Of a DNA stretch of 64,000 nucleotides, positions 6,098-55,790 are shown piece after piece. Each line of letters opens with the position of its first letter. Position 1 is the stretch's first letter. Under the pieces are notes generated by a model that saw only the letters and a list, made by a program, of their open reading frames with translations, searched no databases and was not told the origin of the DNA. Source of the stretch: Bacteroidota bacterium. GTDB taxonomy: Bacteria > Bacteroidota > Bacteroidia > Chitinophagales > Chitinophagaceae. Position numbers and translations under genes: made by a program. The stretch lies in the NCBI GenBank assembly GCA_013286305.1, contig JABDFW010000008.1, positions 1,596 through 65,595 of the forward strand. The letters are read 5' to 3'.

Positions 6098-6853
6098 TTA
6101 AAAATCAATACCCGTCCAACGACGCTTGTTCAATTCATATTTTTGAAAATTGAATTGGTAAAGCCTGCCCGGGCGGTGCGGAACATCGTCTTCATACTCG
6201 CCGGTATCAATCAAAAAATCCATAGAAAAGAATTTTTTCCTGAAATTCCTGCGGTCAAGCTTTACGTTTAAAATTGCTTCGTATAGGTTTTGGAGTTCAC
6301 GAAGGGAGAATTTTTCGGGCAGCAGGTTAAAGCCGAGGGGATGCTCCATAATACGTTTTTGCAGCCAGTTATAGCAATAATCCATTATTTCTTTATGGTC
6401 AAATGCCATTTCCTTAATATTCTGCACACTGTGCCAGTGCAACTCATTATCCATCTTCCCAAGCTTATGCTGCTCAATGTTTAATAATGAGCAATAAGCA
6501 ACCGTTAAAACACGCCCGCCGGGGTGCCTGCCCGGCTTACTAAAGGTGCGTACCTGTTCCAGGTAAACATCATCCATACCCGTTCTTTCACACAATACCC
6601 TGTAAGCGGCATCATCTAATTCTTCGTTATCTGCTGCAAAATCGCCCAGCAGCGACCACTGGCCTTTAAATATTTCAAGGTCGCTTCTTATTAAAAGTAT
6701 TTTTAATTCATTCTCATCAAAACCAAAGATCACGCAATCAACGGTAATAGGCACGCGCGGGTAGGAGGTAACGAGCTTTTCAGCACTTTTTATCAATCCG
6801 CCATTTTTGGTGCGCACAGGTTGTTGTATTACGGAGGAATCGTTATTCATCAT
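6098..6853 (-). CDS. NUDIX-domain transcriptional regulator (NrtR/AraR-like): NUDIX fold plus C-terminal winged helix
   Basis: 251 aa. A NUDIX-like core (WSLLGDFAADNEELDDAAYRVLCERTGM) is followed by a C-terminal segment (LRELQNLYEAILNVKLDRRNFRKK) typical of NrtR-family DNA-binding domains. Its position next to a PUL matches Bacteroidota sugar regulators. Confidence 0.7.
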   Translation of the reverse strand: MMNNDSSVIQQPVRTKNGGLIKSAEKLVTSYPRVPITVDCVIFGFDENELKILLIRSDLEIFKGQWSLLGDFAADNEELDDAAYRVLCERTGMDDVYLEQVRTFSKPGRHPGGRVLTVAYCSLLNIEQHKLGKMDNELHWHSVQNIKEMAFDHKEIMDYCYNWLQKRIMEHPLGFNLLPEKFSLRELQNLYEAILNVKLDRRNFRKKFFSMDFLIDTGEYEDDVPHRPGRLYQFNFQKYELNKRRWTGIDF

Positions 6854-6935: not shown

Positions 6936-7095
6936 ATGTAAAACTAAAATTTCAAATATCTATTAAAAAGGCTAAAAAATTAGAAAAATAAAAAAATAAG
7001 CCGCCCATTTTAAATATTCACCCTGTTTTCTTTTACTTTATTAACTAATTACTTATTCATCTTTCCACCTTAATTTTATCGCCCAAACTTATTGT

Positions 7096-9276
7096 ATGTA
7101 TTCCGCAGAGCAAACAAAACATTTACAGCAGCAAACAAAAGCATTTATTGCCCATGCGCAGATAGATAAAAATGACGTTGAAGCTTTGCGCAATGTATTA
7201 CGGTTTCATGAATACAGGTATTACGTGTTAAATGACCCTCTTTTAGCCGACCCCGAATACGACCAGTTATTTAAACAACTTGAAAAGATTGAAGAAGGAA
7301 ACCCGGAATTGATCACCGGCGATTCCCCCACCCAAAGAGTTGGCAGCAGCCTTAACCAGTCGTTTCCTACAGTGCAGCACCTGGTTCCCATGCTAAGCTT
7401 AGACAATAGTTATGATGCCGATGACCTGCTTGATTTTGACAGGAAAGCGCGTGAATTGACAAGACTTGATGTGATTGAATATTGCATAGAGCCGAAGTTT
7501 GACGGAGCAAGTATTTCTTTAATATATGAGGATGATATGCTTGTTCGCGGTGCTACGCGGGGTGATGGTGTAGAGGGAGAAGATGTTACCACCAATATTA
7601 AACGCATACGCTCTATACCGTTGTCTGCGCCGTTTTCACAATACGGCATCCAGCAAATTGAAATACGCGGCGAAGTTTTAATGACAAAGGCTGCCTTTAA
7701 AAAATATAATGATGCACTTGCAGAACAGGGGCTTCCGCCATTGGCCAACCCGCGTAATGCAGCCAGTGGCAGCCTGCGTATTAAAGACCCCAAAATAGTT
7801 GGCAAAAGAAATCTTGAAGCGTTTTTGTATAATGTGAGCTATTATATTAGAGATGACAGATGGCAGATGACAGATGACAGGAAGAAGGAGGAAAAGGCTT
7901 CAGGCGCTTCTGTCAACTCTCATCTGTCATCTGTCAACCCTCTTTCCACCCACAGCGGTACACTGCAAATGTTATGGGAGTGTGGTTTTCGCTCTCCCCA
8001 AAAAGAAAAGATCGTTGTACAGGGCATTAATGAAGTAATTAAGCATGTACACGATTTTGAAGAAATGCGCGATACCCTGCCTTATGAAATTGACGGTATG
8101 GTAATAAAGGTAAATGAAATTGCGCTGCAGGATAAAATGGGCATGACCACCCACCACCCGCGCTGGGCAATTGCATTTAAATTTAAAGCAAGGCAGGCGA
8201 CAACTAAATTACGGGCGGTTGAATTTAATGTAGGCAGAACCGGCGCCGTTACCCCTGTTGCAAAACTTGACCCCGTGGCCGTTGGCGGCGTAACCGTTGG
8301 CAGTATATCTATGCACAACGAAGAATATATAAAAGAAAAAGACCTGATGATAGGCGATTCCGTTTTGATTGAAAGGGCCGGTGATGTAATACCACAAATT
8401 GTAAAATCTTTACCTGAATTAAGAACAGGCGATGAAAAACATATTCATTTCCCCAGGCATTGCCCTGTTTGCAAAAGTGAATTATACAAAACAGAGGATG
8501 AAGCTGTTTGGAGATGCATAAATATCGAGTGCCCCGCACAGGTGGTGGAACGCATCATTCATTTTGTAAGCAAAGATGCGATGGATATAAAAAGTTTTGG
8601 GGAAGCAAACGTGCGCAAGTTTTATGAATTGGGATTACTGAAAGATGTACCCGGCATTTATACGCTGGACTTTGATGCGATAAGCAAGCTTGAGGGGTTT
8701 GGTAAAAAATCAATTGATAATCTTCAAAGCGCCATTGAAGCATCTAAACAGCAGCCATTATACCGTTTAATATATGCGCTTGGCATTCGTTATGTAGGCG
8801 AAACAACTGCCAAAACAGTAGCCAATGCAATACACGATGTATTTGAATTGGAAAATATGAGCGATGTGCAATTGCAGCAAATGGAAGATGTTGGCGTTAA
8901 AGTAGCGCAAAGCATTTTTGCATTTTTTCAGAATAAAGAAAACATAAAAATACTTCACAAACTAAAAGAGCTTGGTTTGCAGATGTACAATATAAAGCGG
9001 TCTGCCCCAACAGAAAGCAATACCCTGCATGAACAAACATTTTTATTTACCGGAACGATGCTGAAACTTAAACGCAGCGAGGCTGAAGAAATGGTTGAAA
9101 AACACGGCGGCAAAATTGCAAGCGGCGTAAGCAGCAAATTAAATTACCTTGTAGTGGGTGAAGATGCAGGAAGCAAATTAGAAAAAGCAAAAAAAATAAA
9201 TACCATTAAGATCATCAGCGAAGATGAGTTTATAAAGTTGATTGGGGAAGAAGCCTCCTTAGCCCCCATCCCCTAA
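7096..9276 (+). CDS. ligA: NAD-dependent DNA ligase
   Basis: 726 aa. It has the KxDG adenylation motif (CIEPKFDGASISL), OB fold, Zn finger (CPVCKSEL...CINIECPAQ), HhH repeats and a C-terminal BRCT. Confidence 0.97.
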   Translation: MYSAEQTKHLQQQTKAFIAHAQIDKNDVEALRNVLRFHEYRYYVLNDPLLADPEYDQLFKQLEKIEEGNPELITGDSPTQRVGSSLNQSFPTVQHLVPMLSLDNSYDADDLLDFDRKARELTRLDVIEYCIEPKFDGASISLIYEDDMLVRGATRGDGVEGEDVTTNIKRIRSIPLSAPFSQYGIQQIEIRGEVLMTKAAFKKYNDALAEQGLPPLANPRNAASGSLRIKDPKIVGKRNLEAFLYNVSYYIRDDRWQMTDDRKKEEKASGASVNSHLSSVNPLSTHSGTLQMLWECGFRSPQKEKIVVQGINEVIKHVHDFEEMRDTLPYEIDGMVIKVNEIALQDKMGMTTHHPRWAIAFKFKARQATTKLRAVEFNVGRTGAVTPVAKLDPVAVGGVTVGSISMHNEEYIKEKDLMIGDSVLIERAGDVIPQIVKSLPELRTGDEKHIHFPRHCPVCKSELYKTEDEAVWRCINIECPAQVVERIIHFVSKDAMDIKSFGEANVRKFYELGLLKDVPGIYTLDFDAISKLEGFGKKSIDNLQSAIEASKQQPLYRLIYALGIRYVGETTAKTVANAIHDVFELENMSDVQLQQMEDVGVKVAQSIFAFFQNKENIKILHKLKELGLQMYNIKRSAPTESNTLHEQTFLFTGTMLKLKRSEAEEMVEKHGGKIASGVSSKLNYLVVGEDAGSKLEKAKKINTIKIISEDEFIKLIGEEASLAPIP
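7851..7936. repeat. Heptamer-word hairpin (GATGACA-type) inserted in frame within ligA
   Basis: The left arm AGATGACAGATGGCAGATGACAGATGACAGG (7851-7881) is imperfectly complementary to the right arm CTGTCAACTCTCATCTGTCATCTGTCA (7910-7936). It is translated as RDDRWQMTDDRKKEEKASGASVNSHLSSVN. Confidence 0.75.
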
Positions 9277-9402
9277 AGGGGGCTTTATAAACAGGTAATT
9301 TTTGATTAAACATACTGATAATTTATTAACACCAGAAGTTTGAGTAAAGTAGGTAACTATGATATTAACCCGGATAAACGCTCCTCTTTAGGGGATGGGG
9401 GC
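9262..9402. repeat. Pair of GC-rich hairpin repeats forming a perfect 17-bp inverted repeat across the ligA/HAD junction
   Basis: GCCCCCATCCCCTAAAG (9262-9278) and CTTTAGGGGATGGGGGC (9386-9402) are exact reverse complements. The ligA stop codon TAA lies in the CCCC-TAAA-GGGG loop. Confidence 0.7.
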
Positions 9403-13901: not shown

Positions 13902-13961
13902 GTCAGAAAGATACCTATACCATTTCTTGCAGACTTTCTGTCTTCCGGACTTTCGGACTTT
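13902..13961. repeat. Short-word hairpin containing the dispersed 15-mer CTTCCGGACTTTCGG
   Basis: GTCAGAAAG...CTTTCTG complementarity, plus CTTCCGGACTTTCGG at 13942-13956. The same 15-mer occurs at 42631-42645, and inverted at 31155-31169. Confidence 0.6.
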
Positions 13962-13980
13962 TACCAACTACATACATTAA

Positions 13981-15285
<1,305 letters not shown>

Positions 15286-15870: not shown

Positions 15871-16110
15871 ATGCCGAATTTTACTACTGAAGACCTGCTA
15901 CTTTATATGTATAATGAAATGAGTAAACTGCAAAAAGCTGCCCTTGAAAAGGAGCTTAAAACTAACTGGGCGTTAAGGGAAAAATTACGTGTTTTAAGCG
16001 AATCTGAACAAAGGTTGCAAAAATTAAGCCTTCATTCCCCCCGAAAGCAAACTGTTGAAGCTATTATGGAATATGCCGCAAATTCATCGGAAGTTTCGTC
16101 GTCAAGGTAG
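15871..16110 (+). CDS. Small hypothetical protein (79 aa)
   Basis: ORF with a helical, non-repetitive sequence. Only the last few codons run into the TACGAAT repeat block. No recognisable family. Confidence 0.45.
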   Translation: MPNFTTEDLLLYMYNEMSKLQKAALEKELKTNWALREKLRVLSESEQRLQKLSLHSPRKQTVEAIMEYAANSSEVSSSR

Positions 16111-16348
16111 CTTTCCGTATCTACGAATACGAATCTATCAAGGTAGTTTCCCGTATCTACGAATACGAATAAATACGAATATACGAATTGGAGGCTACAT
16201 CCATCTACGAAATACGAATCAATACGAATATACAAATTGGAGGATATAAAGAAAGCGGGTTGAATTTGCAATGTACGAGATTCTTAATGCTAAGACACTT
16301 TAAACCCGTGTCGTTCTCTATTCGTAAATTCGTATTGATTCGTATTTC
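16103..16348. repeat. TACGAAT-word repeat block with an inverted distal arm
   Basis: Two tandem ~35-bp units (CAAGGTAG(C/T)TT(T/C)CCGTATCTACGAATACGAAT) and further (A)TACGAAT words at 16103-16240. The complementary words ATTCGTAAATTCGTATTGATTCGTATT sit at 16320-16347. Confidence 0.75.
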
Positions 16349-16386
16349 ATAGGACAACTCACTATTTGGCTTATTTTTGGCCTGCT

Positions 16387-21049: not shown

Positions 21050-21055
21050 CAATAG

Positions 21056-21150
21056 AGTTTCCAGTTTATAGTTTACAGTTTCCAGTTGGTGAGGATGGTA
21101 ACAATTTTACAAACTGAAAACTATAAACTGGAAACCGAAAACTATAAACT
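21056..21150. repeat. Short-word hairpin (CCAGTTT/ATAGTTT words) between the two ABC ATPase genes
   Basis: AGTTTCCAGTTTATAGTTTACAGTTTCCAGTT (21056-21087) is complementary in word content to AAACTGAAAACTATAAACTGGAAACCGAAAACTATAAACT (21111-21150). Confidence 0.7.
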
Positions 21151-21156
21151 AAAATT

Positions 21157-21894: not shown

Positions 21895-21945
21895 ATAAAA
21901 GTCATTGGGTCAGTAGGTCATTGGTCATTAAGTCATTAGGGCAAT

Positions 21946-22138
21946 ACCCTGAAGGGGTTAAATATGAATAGCCCCGCATGAAATACGGGGAACAAAACAT
22001 AGTGTGTTTATACAACCCTTAAGGGGTTGAATAAATACGGTTTTACAGGTTGAACCCCTGCAGGGTTCAGGGGAGCGGATAGTTGTTTTGTTCCCCGGGC
22101 TACGCCCGGAGTTATTCATATTCAATCCCTTCAGGATT
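21946..22138. repeat. ~190-bp composite structured repeat made of two inverted ~55-bp units plus internal GGGGTT/AACCCC hairpins
   Basis: The reverse complement of the unit at 21946-22000 (ACCCTGAAGGGGTTAAATATGAATAGCCCCGCATGAAATACGGGGAACAAAACAT) closely matches 22083-22138 (TTGTTTTGTTCCCCGGGCTACGCCCGGAGTTATTCATATTCAATCCCTTCAGGATT). The centre holds AACCCTTAAGGGGTT and GAACCCCTGCAGGGTTC hairpins. Confidence 0.7.
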
Positions 22139-29959: not shown

Positions 29960-31048
29960 TTAATTCCCCATCATCTTAAAAAAGTCGTCAAAAAGATAGC
30001 GGCTGTCAAACGGGCCTGGTGTTGATTCAGGATGGTATTGCACACTAAAAGCAGGCTTATCTTTCAGGCGGATACCCTCAATACTGTCATCATTCAGGTT
30101 AATGTGAGTAACCTCAACATTGGGGTGGTTACGAACAGCAACAGGGTCAACACCAAAGCCGTGGTTTTGCGTAGTTATTTCGCAGATATCGTCAATAATA
30201 TTTTTTACCGGATGGTTAAGCCCCCGGTGGCCATGGTGCATTTTAAAGGTAGGTATATCATTTGCAAGGGCCAGCAACTGGTGCCCCAGGCAAATACCGA
30301 ATACCGGCTTTTGTTCCTTTAGTATTTCCTTAAGCGTTTCTATTGCATAAGGCATAGCTGCGGGGTCGCCGGGGCCGTTTGAAATAAAATAACCATCGGG
30401 ATTAAATTCTTTCAATCTGCTAATGCTTGTTTTAGCAGGGTGCACCCTTATATATGCGCCACGGTCTGTAAGGCAGGTAAGTATATTGTGCTTTATGCCA
30501 TAATCAAGTACAGCCACTTTAAGCTTCGAATTAACATCGCCCAATTCGTATTCTTCCTTAGTGCTTACCGTGCTGGCAAGCTCAAGACCATCCATGTCAG
30601 GCACATTCGCCAAAATACCTTTCAACTCATCAATATCTAATATGTCGGAGGAGATAACACAGTTCATAGCGCCTTTGGTACGTATATGCGTAACCAATGC
30701 CCGGGTATCAATATCTTCAATAGCTACTATTTCATTGGCCTTTAAATATTCATCTAACGAGCCTGTTGCCTGGTAGCGTGAAAAACGGTCTTCCAGGTTC
30801 CTTCCTATCAGCCCGCGAATTTTAACGCTGTCACTTTCAAGGTCTTTTAAATTAACGCCGTAGTTGCCCACATGAACATTGTTCATTATAAGTACCTGAC
30901 CATAATAGCTGGGGTCGGTAAATACTTCCTGGTAGCCCGTCATCCCGGTATTAAAGCATATTTCACCGGTGGTTGTGCCTATCTTTCCAAAAGCTTTACC
31001 GTAAAAAACATGGCCATCCGCTAAAACCAATACTGCTGTGTGTGACAT
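29960..31048 (-). CDS. carA: Carbamoyl-phosphate synthase small (glutaminase) subunit
   Basis: The true start is MSHTAVLVLADGHVFYGKAFG (ATG 31048..31046). GATase triad motifs are present (GICLGHQLL, HGHRG). The 93 codons upstream in the ORF track are translated repeat DNA. Confidence 0.95.
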   Translation of the reverse strand: MSHTAVLVLADGHVFYGKAFGKIGTTTGEICFNTGMTGYQEVFTDPSYYGQVLIMNNVHVGNYGVNLKDLESDSVKIRGLIGRNLEDRFSRYQATGSLDEYLKANEIVAIEDIDTRALVTHIRTKGAMNCVISSDILDIDELKGILANVPDMDGLELASTVSTKEEYELGDVNSKLKVAVLDYGIKHNILTCLTDRGAYIRVHPAKTSISRLKEFNPDGYFISNGPGDPAAMPYAIETLKEILKEQKPVFGICLGHQLLALANDIPTFKMHHGHRGLNHPVKNIIDDICEITTQNHGFGVDPVAVRNHPNVEVTHINLNDDSIEGIRLKDKPAFSVQYHPESTPGPFDSRYLFDDFFKMMGN

Positions 31049-31127
31049 TGTATCCTTCTGATTTTTCGAGTGCAAAAAAAGAATATAATTTTTAAATAAC
31101 AGGTGAAAGTTTCGCACAAATCCAGTC

Positions 31128-31335
31128 TGGGGTAAGTCCGAAAGTCCGCCGAAGCCCGAAAGTCCGGAAGAATCAGCGGCAGAGTCCGAAAGTCCGCCGA
31201 AGTCCGAGAGTCCGGAAGAATTCACATTTACATTCTTGGGGCTTCGGTCTTTCCGACTTTCGGGCTTTCCGTCTTTCGGACTCCCGGTCTTTCCGTCTCC
31301 CGGTCTTCCCGACTTTCGGACTCCCACCGGACTTT
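31128..31335. repeat. ~200-bp imperfect palindrome built from GTCCGAAAG/CCGGAAG words
   Basis: The left arm holds repeated AGTCCGAAAGTCCGCCGAAG / AGTCCGGAAGAAT words and the right arm holds the complementary CTTTCGGAC / CTTCCCG / TCTTTCC words. The centre is near GAATTCACATTTACATTC (about 31218-31235). Confidence 0.75.
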
Positions 31336-31358
31336 CCGTCTTCCCGTCTTTCTCCTAA

Positions 31359-31962: not shown

Positions 31963-32094
31963 GGCTGTTTAATTTTAGAATGTTGCACCGTGCCAGGAAT
32001 TGCAACATTGGAGTTTAAAAAAAGTTCCAAAAGTTCCAATGTTCAAAGTTCCAGAGTTTAGAACCGTGAACTTGTGAACTATTGAACTCGTGAA

Positions 32095-33096
32095 CTATTT
32101 ATCTATATCATCCAAACCCAGCTTGCTAAGGTCCATACCAAAATGCAAACCGCGTTCTGTTAATACCTGCTCTATTTCGCTTAACGATTTCTGGCCAAAG
32201 TTCCTGAATTTCATCAGATCTTCCTGTTCGTATTGTACCAGTTCGCTTAAGCTGTTGATCTTTGCCGCTTTTAAGCAGTTGAAAGCGCGTACTGAAAGGT
32301 CGAGGTCTTCCAGCGGGGTCTTCAATACTTTTCTTAGCTGCAGCACTTGCTCATCCACTACATCTTCTTTCTTATCTTCCTTATTATCAAAAGTGATGTT
32401 TTCATCAGTGATGATCATAAGGTGCTGAATTAAAATGCGTGAAGCCTGTTTAACCGCTTCTTCAGGATGAATAGTACCATCGGTAGCTACATCAAGAACT
32501 AATTTTTCATAGTCAGTTCTCTGTTCTACACGATAGTTCTCAATGCTGTATTTTACATTCTTTATAGGAGTGTGGATAGAGTCAATGGGAATTGATCCAA
32601 AAGTTGCATCCTTCAGCTTGTTTTCTTCAGCGGGTATATAACCACGGCCCTTGGCAATGGTTAATTCAATATCCAGCCTGCCGGTAGGATCCATGGTGCA
32701 GATAACCAGTTCAGGGTTCATCACCTGGAAGTTCTGGCTTGCTTCGCCAATATTGGCTGCGATAAACTCTGATTTGCCTTTGATAGATAATGTTATCTTT
32801 TCGCTGGCTACATCATGTTCCACTGTTTTTTTGAAACGAACCTGTTTAAGGTTCAGTATTATTTCGGTTACGTCTTCTGTAAGCCCTTTAATGGTGGCAA
32901 ATTCATGATCCACACCTTCAATCTTAATACCATTAATAGCATAACCTTCTAAGCTGCTCAACAACACTCTGCGCAAAGCATTCCCGATGGTTAAGCCAAA
33001 ACCAGGCTCAAGCGGACGAAACTCAAATTGACCTTCGAAATCGTTTGCTTTCTGTAAAACGATCTTGTCAGGTTTCTGGAAGTTTAAAATGGCCAT
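32095..33096 (-). CDS. rpoA: DNA-directed RNA polymerase alpha subunit
   Basis: 333 aa, with NALRRVLLSSLEG near the N-terminus and a C-terminal domain (LDLSVRAFNCLKAAKINSLSELV). Confidence 0.98.
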   Translation of the reverse strand: MAILNFQKPDKIVLQKANDFEGQFEFRPLEPGFGLTIGNALRRVLLSSLEGYAINGIKIEGVDHEFATIKGLTEDVTEIILNLKQVRFKKTVEHDVASEKITLSIKGKSEFIAANIGEASQNFQVMNPELVICTMDPTGRLDIELTIAKGRGYIPAEENKLKDATFGSIPIDSIHTPIKNVKYSIENYRVEQRTDYEKLVLDVATDGTIHPEEAVKQASRILIQHLMIITDENITFDNKEDKKEDVVDEQVLQLRKVLKTPLEDLDLSVRAFNCLKAAKINSLSELVQYEQEDLMKFRNFGQKSLSEIEQVLTERGLHFGMDLSKLGLDDIDK

Positions 33097-33844: not shown

Positions 33845-33927
33845 AATTTTTGTTGTTGATTTTTTGGTGACGATGTGTAATCATTAAAAATCTAAAATCA
33901 ATTACACACCCATTTATAAAAATTTTT

Positions 33928-33992
33928 GATCTTGAGATTTTGCGATTTTGTGATTTAAAAAGAAATCACAAAATCCCTCAATCCCGAAATCA
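33928..33992. repeat. Short-word hairpin (GATTTTG words) in the rpsK-rpsD spacer
   Basis: GATTTTGTGATTT (33944-33956) and AAATCACAAAATC (33964-33976) are exact complements. The flanking words are partly complementary. Confidence 0.65.
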
Positions 33993-34000
33993 GCAATTAC

Positions 34001-34457: not shown

Positions 34458-34569
34458 AATGCAAAATATCCGGCGGATTATATAAATGTGAAAATCCCAG
34501 GTATAAAGTACCAAATTCCAAACGCAACTTTACAGTGGAATTTGGAATTTGGCTTTTGGGATTTTGCAT
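34458..34569. repeat. ~110-bp nested word hairpin filling the rpsM-rpsK spacer
   Basis: There are three nested complementary word pairs: TGCAAAAT/ATTTTGCA, AAAATCCCA/TGGGATTTT and CCAAATTCCA/TGGAATTTGG. Confidence 0.75.
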
Positions 34570-39279: not shown

Positions 39280-39524
39280 CGGATGATTTAATGTGGAGAC
39301 TTATTTTGTCAGTTTGTAGATTCGGAGGATAAAAAGTTGTTTAAAAAATCACGCCAAGGCGCAAAGCCGCAAAGAGAGTAGTAATAAATACATTTTTTTC
39401 TTTGCGTCTTTGCGAGTGGTTGGTAATAACAATCAAACCCCTTTAGTGAACTACTGAAACTTGGGAACCCGTGAACTCATTGAACATTCAAACCCTCAAA
39501 CTTTCAAACAATCAAACAAACGAA

Positions 39525-40539: not shown

Positions 40540-40574
40540 AACCGTGCCCCTTTTTTTAATGACGGGCTGCATAA

Positions 40575-40692
40575 ATGATTTATTGACTAATGACCCCAAT
40601 GACTTGCCTTTTCCAATGACTTATTGACCAATGACCCAATGACTTTCCTTCTCCCCCAATGACTTACTGACTCAATGACCCAATGACTTTTT
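40575..40692. repeat. CCAATGAC-word repeat block
   Basis: At least 7 copies of (C)CAATGAC(T/C) within 120 bp, directly after the hmgA stop. The complementary GTCATTGG words occur at 21901-21940, 39130-39137/39260-39267 and 45675-45682. Confidence 0.75.
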
Positions 40693-40694
40693 TC

Positions 40695-41852
40695 TCATTC
40701 ACTCCAGCTCATAATATAATGCGGGTTTTCAATTTCCAGCGCATCTATAGTTAACTGCAACGGATGAAAAGTATCAACCATCACGGCCAGCTCTTTGGTT
40801 TCTTTAGCGCCGATGCTTTTTTCAACAGCGCCAGGGTGTGGCCCGTGAGGTATGCCGCCCGGGTGAAGCGTTATCATGCCCCTGGTAACATTTTTCCGGC
40901 TCATAAAATCTCCGTCAACATAATAGATCAGTTCATCACTGTCAATATTGCTATGGTTATAAGGAGCTGGAATGGATTGGGGGTGATAATCAAAAAGCCG
41001 TGGCACAAAGCTGCATACCACAAAGTTATTTGCCTCAAAAGTTTGGTGCACAGGCGGTGGCTGGTGTACGCGACCGGTAATAGGCTCAAAGTCGTGAATG
41101 CTAAAGGCAAATGGATAGCAACACCCATCCCAGCCAATTACATCAAACGGGTGAAACCCATAATGTATATGGTACATACGCCCGCTCTTTTTTGTGTGTA
41201 TCACAAAATCACCCGGCTCGTCTGTGGTGGATATATTTTTTGGCGTGCGTATATCTCTTTCGCAATACGGCGAGTGTTCCATTAACTGCCCCCATTTGCT
41301 TACATATTTTTTTGGGTAACGAATGGGGCTAAAACTTTCTACAATAAACAGCCTGTTATCGGTGCTATCAAAGTGTATTTGATAGATGGTACCCCGTGGT
41401 ATCACCAAATAATCGCCATACCCAAATACCAGTTCCCCATATTGTGTCAATAATTTGCCGCTGCCCGTATGTACAAATATCATCTCATCCGCATCTGCAT
41501 TTTTGTAGAAATAATCTTTCATGCTTTCCTGCGGCGCAGCCAAAACAATATGGCAATCATTGTTCACTAACACAGGTTTCTTGCTTTGTAAAAAATCCGC
41601 TTCCGGTTTTACATTAAACCCCTCAAAGCTGCGGTGCTTAAGCATTTTCTCCTCGGCGATACGTGGCTTTACATCATACGGCTCTTCGGTATGAATGATA
41701 ACGGTTGGGGGGTGGCAATGGTACAGCAAGGAATAGTCGCTGCTAAAACCTTCTGTGCTAAATAATTGTTCAGCATATAAAGAGCCATCCGGCTTGCGAA
41801 ACTGTGTATGGCGTTTATGAGGCAGTTGCCCCGATTGAATATAGTGTGACAT
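40695..41852 (-). CDS. hmgA: Homogentisate 1,2-dioxygenase
   Basis: 385 aa with an HGD-like sequence throughout (MSHYIQSGQLPHKRHTQFRKPDGSLYAEQLFSTEGFSSDYSLLYH..., HPGGIPHGPHPG). Confidence 0.93.
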   Translation of the reverse strand: MSHYIQSGQLPHKRHTQFRKPDGSLYAEQLFSTEGFSSDYSLLYHCHPPTVIIHTEEPYDVKPRIAEEKMLKHRSFEGFNVKPEADFLQSKKPVLVNNDCHIVLAAPQESMKDYFYKNADADEMIFVHTGSGKLLTQYGELVFGYGDYLVIPRGTIYQIHFDSTDNRLFIVESFSPIRYPKKYVSKWGQLMEHSPYCERDIRTPKNISTTDEPGDFVIHTKKSGRMYHIHYGFHPFDVIGWDGCCYPFAFSIHDFEPITGRVHQPPPVHQTFEANNFVVCSFVPRLFDYHPQSIPAPYNHSNIDSDELIYYVDGDFMSRKNVTRGMITLHPGGIPHGPHPGAVEKSIGAKETKELAVMVDTFHPLQLTIDALEIENPHYIMSWSE

Positions 41853-42128
41853 GGCAATTTGAGAATTTGGAAATTTGAAGATTTGAAAATGACTGCACGA
41901 GTATTCCTAAAATTGTTAATTAATTAGTGAAAGCAATTATGTAGCAAGCTGTGGTACAACATTAAACATTAGTGGCGTCGCACACTGCAACATTTGAAAT
42001 ACTAATCAGCAATGCGCATAGATAATTCGAGCGTGGTCAGCAGGAAAACATATTTCCATTTACGTTTATCTATCCAATAGGTAAAGTTTCTGTGGAATGG
42101 CATAGTATAAAGATAACAAAATTAAACC

Positions 42129-45658: not shown

Positions 45659-45719
45659 AAAATATGGTCAGTGAGTCATTGGTCAATAAGTCATTAAGTT
45701 AAACAATCTGTAGTCTTGC

Positions 45720-48561: not shown

Positions 48562-48594
48562 CGCTGTTTAATTTACTTAACAAGTTGACTTTTT

Positions 48595-48702
48595 CTCTCC
48601 TCTCCCTTTAGGGTTGGGGCTTTGGCTTTTCTCTCCTCTCCCTTTAGGGTTGGGGCTTTGGCTTTTCTCCCTTCTCCCTTTAGGGCCGGGGCTTCGGCTT
48701 TT
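48595..48702. repeat. Three tandem 36-bp GC-rich repeat units abutting the thrA stop codon
   Basis: CTCTCCTCTCCCTTTAGGGTTGGGGCTTTGGCTTTT appears twice exactly (48595-48630, 48631-48666), followed by the diverged third copy CTCCCTTCTCCCTTTAGGGCCGGGGCTTCGGCTTTT (48667-48702). Confidence 0.9.
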
Positions 48703-55560: not shown

Positions 55561-55790
55561 GTTTGTTGTTTTGTACGCCCCACCCTAAAGGAAGTTCCGG
55601 GGCTGGTTTTTAAATATTACTTGTTGTTGGTTATAGAAATTTTTTGTTTGCCTGCTGTATATCCTTATGCTGCTTTACTTGTGTCACACTCTTGTACGTT
55701 CTTTTTTTTATTGAGCATTGAACATTGAGTATTGAATATTTCAACATTGATTATTTCGATATTACTTTTTTTGTACAATCATCTATTATA

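Follow-up and report, generated by a model that had tools for sequence, protein, structure and literature searches.

A tandem-heptamer hairpin carried in frame within the ligA gene of a Chitinophagaceae bacterium and spelled in other words in its relatives

The DNA analysed here, referred to as the window, is a stretch of 64,000 nucleotides from a Bacteroidota bacterium of the family Chitinophagaceae (assembly GCA_013286305.1, contig JABDFW010000008.1, positions 1,596 to 65,595), and it contains a hairpin made of seven-nucleotide words that lies inside ligA, the gene for the NAD-dependent DNA ligase. A first-pass annotation, made from the letters alone, had described an in-frame hairpin of tandem GATGRCA-type heptamers within the LigA adenylation domain, and the sequence, repeat finding and the intact open reading frame (ORF) all agree with that description. 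The features of the locus are as follows, in window coordinates.

7096-9276, plus strand: ligA, encoding an intact NAD-dependent DNA ligase of 726 amino acids (ORF list, Pfam, match to structure 2owo)
7813-7830, plus strand: codons of the upstream anchor LEAFLY (residues 240-245), within a predicted strand (240-252) whose end immediately precedes the insert
7849-7880, plus strand: 5' arm of the hairpin, 32 nt, reading AGA, the units GATGACA, GATGGCA, GATGACA and GATGACA (7852-7879), then G
7861-7863, plus strand: TGG codon of W256 in unit 2, the one unit in the 5' arm that departs from the word; with an exact GATGACA this codon would be TGA
7861-7932, plus strand: codons of residues 256-279, predicted by AlphaFold2 to be disordered and without secondary structure
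7881-7909, plus strand: apical spacer, 29 nt, purine-rich, encoding KKEEKASGA
7910-7941, plus strand: 3' arm, 32 nt, reading C, the units TGTCAAC, TCTCATC, TGTCATC and TGTCAAC (7911-7938), then CCT
7948-7989, plus strand: codons of the downstream anchor THSGTLQMLWECGF (residues 285-298), where the alignment with E. coli LigA resumes

The host gene is a regular member of its family. Pfam domains Nlig-Ia, adenylation, OB, Zn-finger, HhH and BRCT are on record for the product and follow the order typical of LigA (Ia, adenylation or NTase, OB, Zn finger, HhH, BRCT), the protein matches the E. coli LigA structure 2owo over its full length (E = 8e-149), and the KxDG motif (E132, P133, K134, D136 and G137), invariant in 68 homologues, is intact. 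In the same homologues, residues L240, F243 and Y245 of the upstream anchor and H286, W294 and G297 of the downstream anchor are also invariant. Between the two anchors the HMMER alignment is interrupted at the hairpin, query residues 28-248 corresponding to E. coli 8-228 and residues 285-717 to E. coli 238-670, with 36 residues in the window LigA at the insert site against nine in the E. coli enzyme. The hairpin is translated as residues 252-282 (31 residues), and the encoded peptide, IRDDRWQMTDDRKKEEKASGASVNSHLSSVN, is the one originally proposed. The short loop that the first-pass annotation assigned to other NAD-ligases is likewise found, at this position, in E. coli LigA and in over 80 LigA proteins of Chitinophagaceae. 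Modelling of the loop, a check suggested at the outset, put residues 256-279, which fall after strand 240-252 and before helix 286-295, at a predicted local distance difference test (pLDDT) score under 50 (AlphaFold2, input alignment of 68 sequences); on this model, the insert is probably a floppy, hydrophilic loop that the protein tolerates. The nearest LigA proteins all belong to Chitinophagaceae, including uncultured relatives at 81-85% identity and Panacibacter, Foetidibacter and Filimonas at 71-76%, and the window LigA is the sole member of its own 90% protein cluster.

The hairpin, which occupies 93 nt (7849-7941), is real and lies far beyond chance. Tandem Repeats Finder reports 4.3 copies of AGATGAC in the 5' arm (7851-7880, 91% matches) and 4.0 copies of TCTGTCA in the 3' arm (7909-7936, 80% matches), the latter arm mixing complements of GTTGACA and GATGACA, and the two arms are 84% complementary, with 27 Watson-Crick pairs and one G·T out of 32. 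Matches to GATGACAGATGACA with at most two mismatches number six in the 64-kb window, all of them at the ligA hairpin, against 0.16 expected from shuffles, none of which (0/100) reaches six. The RNA fold of 99 nt has a free energy of -47.7 kcal/mol (z = -6.9, matched by none of 200 shuffles) and the DNA fold of the hairpin one of -21.6 kcal/mol (z = -5.0). The hairpin ranks first in stability among 6390 overlapping 100-nt segments across the 64 kb, where the average fold is -18 ± 6 kcal/mol. Other highly stable folds, at 14331, 48041 and 22011, were considered as further word hairpins and rejected, being G+C-rich with z scores of only -1.2 to -3.0. That the repeat is an assembly artefact, as was initially entertained, is very unlikely, since equivalent hairpins occur at the same site in independently assembled relatives.

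The repeat is shaped by the reading frame that crosses it. Because seven and three share no common factor, a perfect (GATGACA)n or (GTTGACA)n array spells TGA every 21 nt in any frame, and the frame in use would put this stop in unit 2. The unit-2 codon is not TGA in any of the 10 sequences of the GATGACA and GTTGACA classes, where it reads TGG in the window and in the ligA loci L069 and L036, TCA in L163, L165, L167 and L164, TTA in L162, ATT in L119 and GGG in L093, in which the whole of unit 2 has diverged. The window array stops just short of the next TGA, and the words GTTGCCG and GTTTCCA, as well as all 3'-arm complements, are stop-free. The reading frame thus constrains the repeat through stop-codon avoidance. 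This bears on the earlier suggestion of a hotspot for slippage and phase variation, in which the array would act as a contingency locus, heptamer slippage switching ligA off and on or varying the loop. Tandem heptamers are indeed prone to slippage, and loop length varies widely between species, but contingency loci rely on an uninterrupted tract that shifts the frame, and here the arrays are interrupted (units at 91% and 80% matches), a slip of one unit would cause a frameshift in an essential gene, and a perfect unit 2 would introduce TGA. In addition, the relatives are all in frame, with an intact single-ORF ligase in 168 of 168 loci, and their length differences from the window (+6, +6, -6, +9, +12, +21, +48, -15, -42, -60 and -69 nt) include only two multiples of 21. 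We consider a phase-variation locus extremely improbable.

The loop was then defined as the segment between the conserved ..FLY and TH.G.L..LW anchors and taken from 168 Chitinophagaceae ligA loci. Its length ranges from 15 to 64 residues, with 40 in the window; the loop is short, at 15-22 residues, in over 80 loci, and measures 31-35 residues in several clades. A hairpin or partial hairpin is present at the same codons in nine of 11 close relatives, and the nearest of them (protein distance of 0.18 or less) have a tandem-heptamer hairpin in another spelling, each word being matched by its complement in the 3' arm, with folds of -29 to -51 kcal/mol. The words are distributed as follows.

GATGACA: window, L164, L167
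GTTGACA: L163, L165, L162
GTTGCCG or GTTACCG: L161, L166, L168
GTTTCCA: L083, L002

Paired arms are found at the same site in the window, L163, L165, L167, L164, L161, L166, L168, L083 and L002. Losses also occur in close relatives: the loop of L001 is down to 17 residues, nothing but the outermost bases of each arm is left in L003, L169 retains the 5' arm alone and the 3' arm of L162 is shortened. Among relatives, one arm or the core has been deleted in frame more than once. In distant lineages, for example Sediminibacterium (distance of ~0.3), the peptide DDRWQM[TA]DD...HLSSNN is still recognisable, and pairing is weak or at background level (-32 kcal/mol in L069, -30 in L036 and -14 to -26 in most others). 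Taken across the family, the hairpin element is old; some lineages have it alive, others retain a fossil and many have deleted it. A recent insertion in this genome, a possible reading of the first-pass annotation, does not fit these comparisons, as the site is occupied in species 15-30% apart in LigA protein and the element has been reworded, halved or deleted by lineage. The refuting case named in the first-pass annotation, that all orthologues carry an equivalent non-repetitive segment, holds in part, in that some clades have a decayed segment of 31-35 amino acids, but many have nothing at the site.

Other word families occupy the same loop elsewhere in the family. In a different clade (L017, L121, L154, L094, L101 and L009), the ligA loop holds the words GGGAGTC and CGACTCA, CCGACTA or CAGACTA, and in the short-loop members of this clade the 3'-arm array alone is left, reaching the codons of the conserved L.T before the invariant His. 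A G+C-rich clade (L139, L147, L150, L153 and L159) has a loop of 53-55 residues, ..EGWQVTDGH..PGEEPTGE..LPVHEALK, which opens with a shared EGWQ.TDG motif and folds at -51 to -60 kcal/mol, these being raw energies without a composition-matched background. In the distant relative L152, a weak CAATTAG array (3.7 copies, 1733-1758) lies elsewhere in ligA, around residue 540.

The two arms of the hairpin were compared across 13 loops aligned with MAFFT with both arms in register, using the window's own pairing scheme. In this set, standard pairs make up 76% of cells; sliding the partner by one to three columns lowers the share to 21-43%. Compensatory changes, as expected of a covarying stem, are present, both sides having changed at 18 of 32 pairs, although this count is inflated and reflects ~3-4 independent word positions, because a single word change, spread across four units, is scored repeatedly; in 500 shuffles, no observed measure was reached. 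The arms are 69-84% Watson-Crick paired across taxa with a ligA core DNA identity of ~78-90%, at which an unmaintained 32-bp stem should have decayed, so that pairing is being actively restored. The arms change together, and pairing survives rewording between GATGACA, GTTGACA, GTTGCCG and GTTTCCA. Within a sequence, units share an identity of 0.75-0.77, compared with 0.60-0.63 for corresponding units between word classes, a case of concerted evolution. Hybrid arrays join the words by single-base steps: L165 and L167 mix GATGACA with GTTGACA-type units, the 3' arm of the window has TGTCAAC alongside TGTCATC, L002 has one GTTGCCA unit within a GTTTCCA array, and unit 4 of the GTTGCCG class still starts with GAT. 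The loops of L104 and L105 are identical save for one 9-nt cluster, CGTTCAATG versus AGTTTACAG, in the last 5'-arm unit (L104 2364-2492), a change suggestive of template switching or conversion.

Strong covariation between arms is also what would be expected if the hairpin acted in the ligA mRNA as an RNA structure under selection, serving for instance in processing, stability, translational pausing or autoregulation, with the compensatory changes reflecting selection for the fold. The hairpin is the most stable fold in the window, it is retained in most close relatives despite ~15-20% divergence of the core DNA, and the stop-avoiding A-to-G change in the window preserves a G·U pair. On the other hand, the stem mismatches comprise 23 G·U and 38 A·C in the sense strand; G·U shows no excess over A·C. 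This result speaks against selection on the sense mRNA fold, gives no backing to the effect on mRNA structure or translation speed suggested at the outset, and is easier to reconcile with a process at the DNA level. With ligA intact, L001, L003, L169 and most distant lineages have lost all or half of the hairpin, the 13-loop alignment shows no conservation of the apical loop, and the same architecture occurs with many other words in intergenic DNA. No terminator-like site was found in 7000-9400, the 3' tail after the hairpin reading CCCTCTTTCC, and the terminator and promoter scan returned nothing meaningful. Rfam 15 gave no match in the window at gathering thresholds, the only matches being to microRNA-precursor models at 16-24 bits against thresholds of 60-100. 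A selected RNA structure is therefore, in our assessment, unlikely.

The account that we favour, and hold to be probable by a modest degree, is that the ligA element is a self-homogenising DNA quasi-palindrome with tandem-heptamer arms, long resident in a permissive surface loop of LigA and constrained by the frame. Replication slippage among tandem units would homogenise each arm, and intramolecular template switching between the arms of the quasi-palindrome would restore their complementarity; through these two processes the element could persist without serving LigA, the protein merely tolerating the segment, and in some clades the decayed peptide may have become a fixed part of the protein. 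Several observations, besides the inflated covariation count, weigh against this account. The mechanism is drawn from the pattern, with no slippage or template-switch event seen directly, and the persistence of the element in nine of 11 close relatives, together with the conserved DDRWQM..HLSS in distant lineages, could reflect selection rather than self-maintenance. The word classes are at odds with the ligA gene tree, in that L168 (GTTRCCG) is sister to L169 (GATGACA) with a bootstrap of 100% and L161 and L166 (GTTGCCG) branch elsewhere, in a clade tree with poorly supported deep nodes; recurrent switching of neighbouring words, sorting of a composite ancestral array or exchange of loop alleles must therefore be invoked. 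Sliding-window identity gave no clear recombination signature in the loop flanks and placed L168 closest to L169 along ligA, including the -60 window adjoining the loop. In L167 and L169, a GTTGCCA-like first unit is followed by GATGACA units, an order that hints at a composite ancestral array. Finally, in a Parafilimonas-type clade with a decayed hairpin (L008, L010, L015, L019, L029, L039, L099, L107, L109 and L112; loop TTLEGKKVSDEKDHSKENISKKEAPF, most pairing lost), identity over the 33-residue loop is 0.92, compared with 0.88 for the rest of LigA.

A loop more conserved than the remaining protein implies protein-level constraint in that clade, and suggests that the loop peptide was taken into service and functionally fixed in at least one, Parafilimonas-type, lineage. 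In Parafilimonas terrae (L013), a further 31 residues are inserted within the ligA loop. Extended to the family as a whole, the same argument would make the segment a functional LigA loop arising by protein-level adaptation, with the DNA palindrome as a relic or by-product. The motif [DE][DG]x[WK][QK][MVF]x[TS]D[DEG] recurs in lineages at a distance of 0.3, sometimes with synonymous changes, as in L026, which spells DDGWRMSDE as GACGACGGATGGAGAATGTCTGACGAA. Against such a role, the peptides of the closest relatives are unrelated between word classes (DDRWQMTDD, VAGYRLPDTG and VPGFQFPVSS) while DNA pairing persists, the encoded residues 256-279 are predicted to be disordered, many LigA proteins of the family lack the loop, and identity in the Sediminibacterium-type and Panacibacter-type clades falls from 0.84-0.85 in the core to 0.43-0.50 in the loop. 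Protein-level adaptation as the general explanation strikes us as distinctly unlikely.

The window has other word repeats besides the ligA hairpin, and these, in line with the first-pass annotation, include intergenic hairpins of the same architecture. Tandem Repeats Finder reports 19 more arrays of period 6-8, with other words such as GACTTTCG, AGTTTCC, GATTTTG, CGCAAAG and AATGACT, and seven more word hairpins were found, all intergenic, with arms of tandem 7-10-nt words and their inverse complements and a word that differs by locus.

16205-16352: word hairpin, word AATACGAAT, belonging to a 250-nt element (16102-16352) upstream of nth
21057-21150: word hairpin, word AGTTTCC; 21050-21155 folds at z = -6.1
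31134-31350: word hairpin, word AAGTCCGA, upstream of carA
32021-32097: word hairpin, word AAAGTTCC
33921-33998: word hairpin, word GATTTTG
34491-34565: word hairpin, word TGGAATT
39352-39414: word hairpin, word CGCAAAG

A coding status for hairpin 31134-31350, within an ORF at 29960-31327, was rejected, since transcription reaches the hairpin before the true carA start. Across the window and 169 related loci, 12 of 118 distinct arrays of period 6-9 outside the ligA loop sit well inside long open frames, several of these having a period of 6 or 9, and the ligA hairpin is a rare coding member of a mostly intergenic word-hairpin population. Arrays were more frequent in the flanks of loci with a live ligA hairpin than in those without (0.19 versus 0.095 per kb, p = 0.003), a weak result on which we place no reliance, as it is driven by a few loci and the flanks span only 5-6 kb. 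The ligA-loop word of L083 (3236-3388) and L002, AGTTTCC/GGAAACT, is also the word of the intergenic hairpin 21057-21150, a match that may reflect coincidence or a limited vocabulary of favoured words.

A further possibility is a recent in-frame insertion of a mobile palindrome, akin to a Rickettsia palindromic element (RPE) or a miniature inverted-repeat transposable element (MITE), with the different words as independent hot-spot insertions. Palindromes in frame in the loops of housekeeping genes have been described for RPEs (PMC10969869), and residence in an unbroken ORF at a position of predicted disorder agrees with such elements. The intergenic word hairpins also vary between close relatives: the enolase-upstream array is present in the window and L162 but not in L161, and the 16102-16352 element with the word AATACGAAT is absent from the corresponding site in L161. 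Mobile palindromes, however, occur as several dispersed copies, which is not the case here in the window and 169 related loci. Arrays of GATGACAGATGACA, CCGGTTRCCGGTT and GTTGACAGTTSACAG are confined to ligA loops, and neither the 64-kb window nor ~790 kb of related DNA yielded a further copy of any ligA word array; single ligA-word matches in L019 and L137 form no hairpin and were dismissed as chance. Words specific to the locus make a dispersed mobile element unlikely, and the absence of further copies, the identical boundaries and the hybrid arrays that bridge word classes together argue for evolution in place rather than repeated insertion. Decayed homologues in distant lineages also speak against recent mobility. 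The whole element is an inverted repeat, and the flanks at 7840-7848 and 7942-7950 show no direct repeat, though an old duplication could have decayed. The ligA element thus appears to have been inherited at its locus, as part of an otherwise intergenic population of word hairpins and arrays, rather than copied from elsewhere, and we rate a recent mobile insertion as very unlikely.

Several known systems resemble the ligA element in part. Heptamer repeats of cyanobacteria, the short tandemly repeated repetitive (STRR) sequences, were reportedly described by Mazel et al. in 1990, and the first-pass annotation had likened the hairpin to them. The likeness holds for the tandem direct 7-nt unit (4.3 and 4.0 copies), but not for the use of the same word at many loci. 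To our knowledge, a tandem-word hairpin with 32-nt arms kept in an essential ORF across genera has not been described before. Long simple-sequence repeats (LSSRs) with 7-nt units are also on record (Mrazek et al. 2007, via PMC4679880). STRR and LSSR arrays resemble the present repeats in having tandem 7-nt units, in being overwhelmingly intergenic and abundant in particular lineages, and in their presumed growth through slippage of the polymerase; direct arrays of a few genome-wide words make up the STRR and TAACTGA-type repeats, whereas each word hairpin has its own word per locus and an array paired with its inverse complement, the ligA one being coding. We found no description of heptamer or word hairpins in Bacteroidetes or Chitinophagaceae in the library searched, the nearest being the TAACTGA repeats (PMC4679880), which are direct repeats and not hairpins. 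RPEs, as summarised in PMC10969869, share with the ligA hairpin a palindromic DNA of ~100 nt placed in frame inside housekeeping genes and translated where the fold tolerates an extra segment. They differ in forming dispersed families of conserved sequence and peptide that are copied into many genes, whereas the ligA hairpin has tandem-heptamer arms and a locus-unique word, has no other copy that we could find, and has been reworded in place with pairing kept. Repetitive extragenic palindromic (REP) sequences and bacterial interspersed mosaic elements (BIMEs) form genome-wide populations of intergenic stem-loops (PMC10969869), as do the other word hairpins of the window, but REP-type elements have one shared consensus and depend on a transposase, whereas word hairpins differ by locus and have no associated enzyme identified. 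Hairpins are documented to arise and be maintained through template switching, which also homogenises the arms of inverted repeats, and arm-to-arm copying in quasipalindromes would explain one-step compensatory changes, homogenised arms and clustered multi-nucleotide changes, also in coding sequence (PMC8794818, PMC8604942, PMC7202029). The inverted repeats in those studies are short, or the stems belong to non-coding RNAs, and the mechanism in ligA is putative; by its mechanism, the ligA hairpin would be most like the template-switch-maintained hairpins (PMC8794818), although larger, longer-lived and in an essential ORF.

Further features surround the hairpin or belong to the repeats of the window. 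Divergent from and upstream of ligA, on the minus strand (6098-6853), lies a gene for a Nudix protein with NrtR/AraR-type winged-helix domains, as judged from Pfam hits on syntenic genes in relatives, and the order NrtR-like gene, ligA, HAD hydrolase, M28 peptidase is kept in L161, L163, L165 and L166. At the 3' end of ligA there is a 20-nt inverted repeat (9262-9281 and 9383-9402, GCCCCCATCCCCTAAAGGGG and CCTCTTTAGGGGATGGGGGC, 95% complementary, 101 nt between arms), the 5' arm of which covers the ligA stop codon and the 3' arm of which is just within the start of the HAD hydrolase ORF. A 36-nt unit is repeated three times in tandem at 48591-48702 (TTTTCTCTCCTCTCCCTTTAGGGTTGGGGCTTTGGC, 93% matches), between two minus-strand genes, and its core, CCCTTTAGGG, resembles the inverted repeat at the ligA 3' end. 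One-armed tandem word arrays, with periods of 7-8 and lacking an inverse partner in the vicinity, occur at 13932-13961, 21899-21940, 39483-39519, 40574-40689, 41852-41890, 45665-45695 and 55710-55750, several of them just upstream of gene starts. The word GGACTTTC upstream of the enolase gene is also found at 31134-31350 and in L162 and is missing at the L161 site. A long inverted repeat at 21948-22135, with 52-nt arms that are 79% complementary and 84 nt apart, adjoins a GTCATTAG word array.

From an evolutionary point of view, the ligA site offers an unusually clean natural experiment on the persistence and evolution of DNA hairpins. The essential ORF fixes position and frame, so that homologous hairpins can be aligned base by base over many species, and rewording, arm-to-arm compensation, stop-codon avoidance and decay can be read directly. 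If maintenance is mechanical, through slippage together with template switching, this would be a large, long-running process that mimics selection on RNA structure, and would call for caution in covariation-based RNA discovery; if it is selective, ligA in Chitinophagaceae would carry an unknown cis-element. Repeat DNA here supplies a core enzyme with new peptide segments that are sometimes later constrained. The ligA case further suggests that Chitinophagaceae have a population of intergenic word hairpins that has yet to be described. A bolder proposal, to which we give rather little weight, is that these hairpins, with tandem words of 7-8 nt and one word per locus, form an undescribed class that renews itself by concerted evolution or, in a stronger version, that their pairing is kept by a selected function, such as a structure acting on ligA mRNA or DNA, or that the hairpins are made by a dedicated enzyme. 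If this were true, the copy in ligA would demonstrate that an essential gene can harbour such an element over very long periods while it is reworded yet stays paired and in frame.

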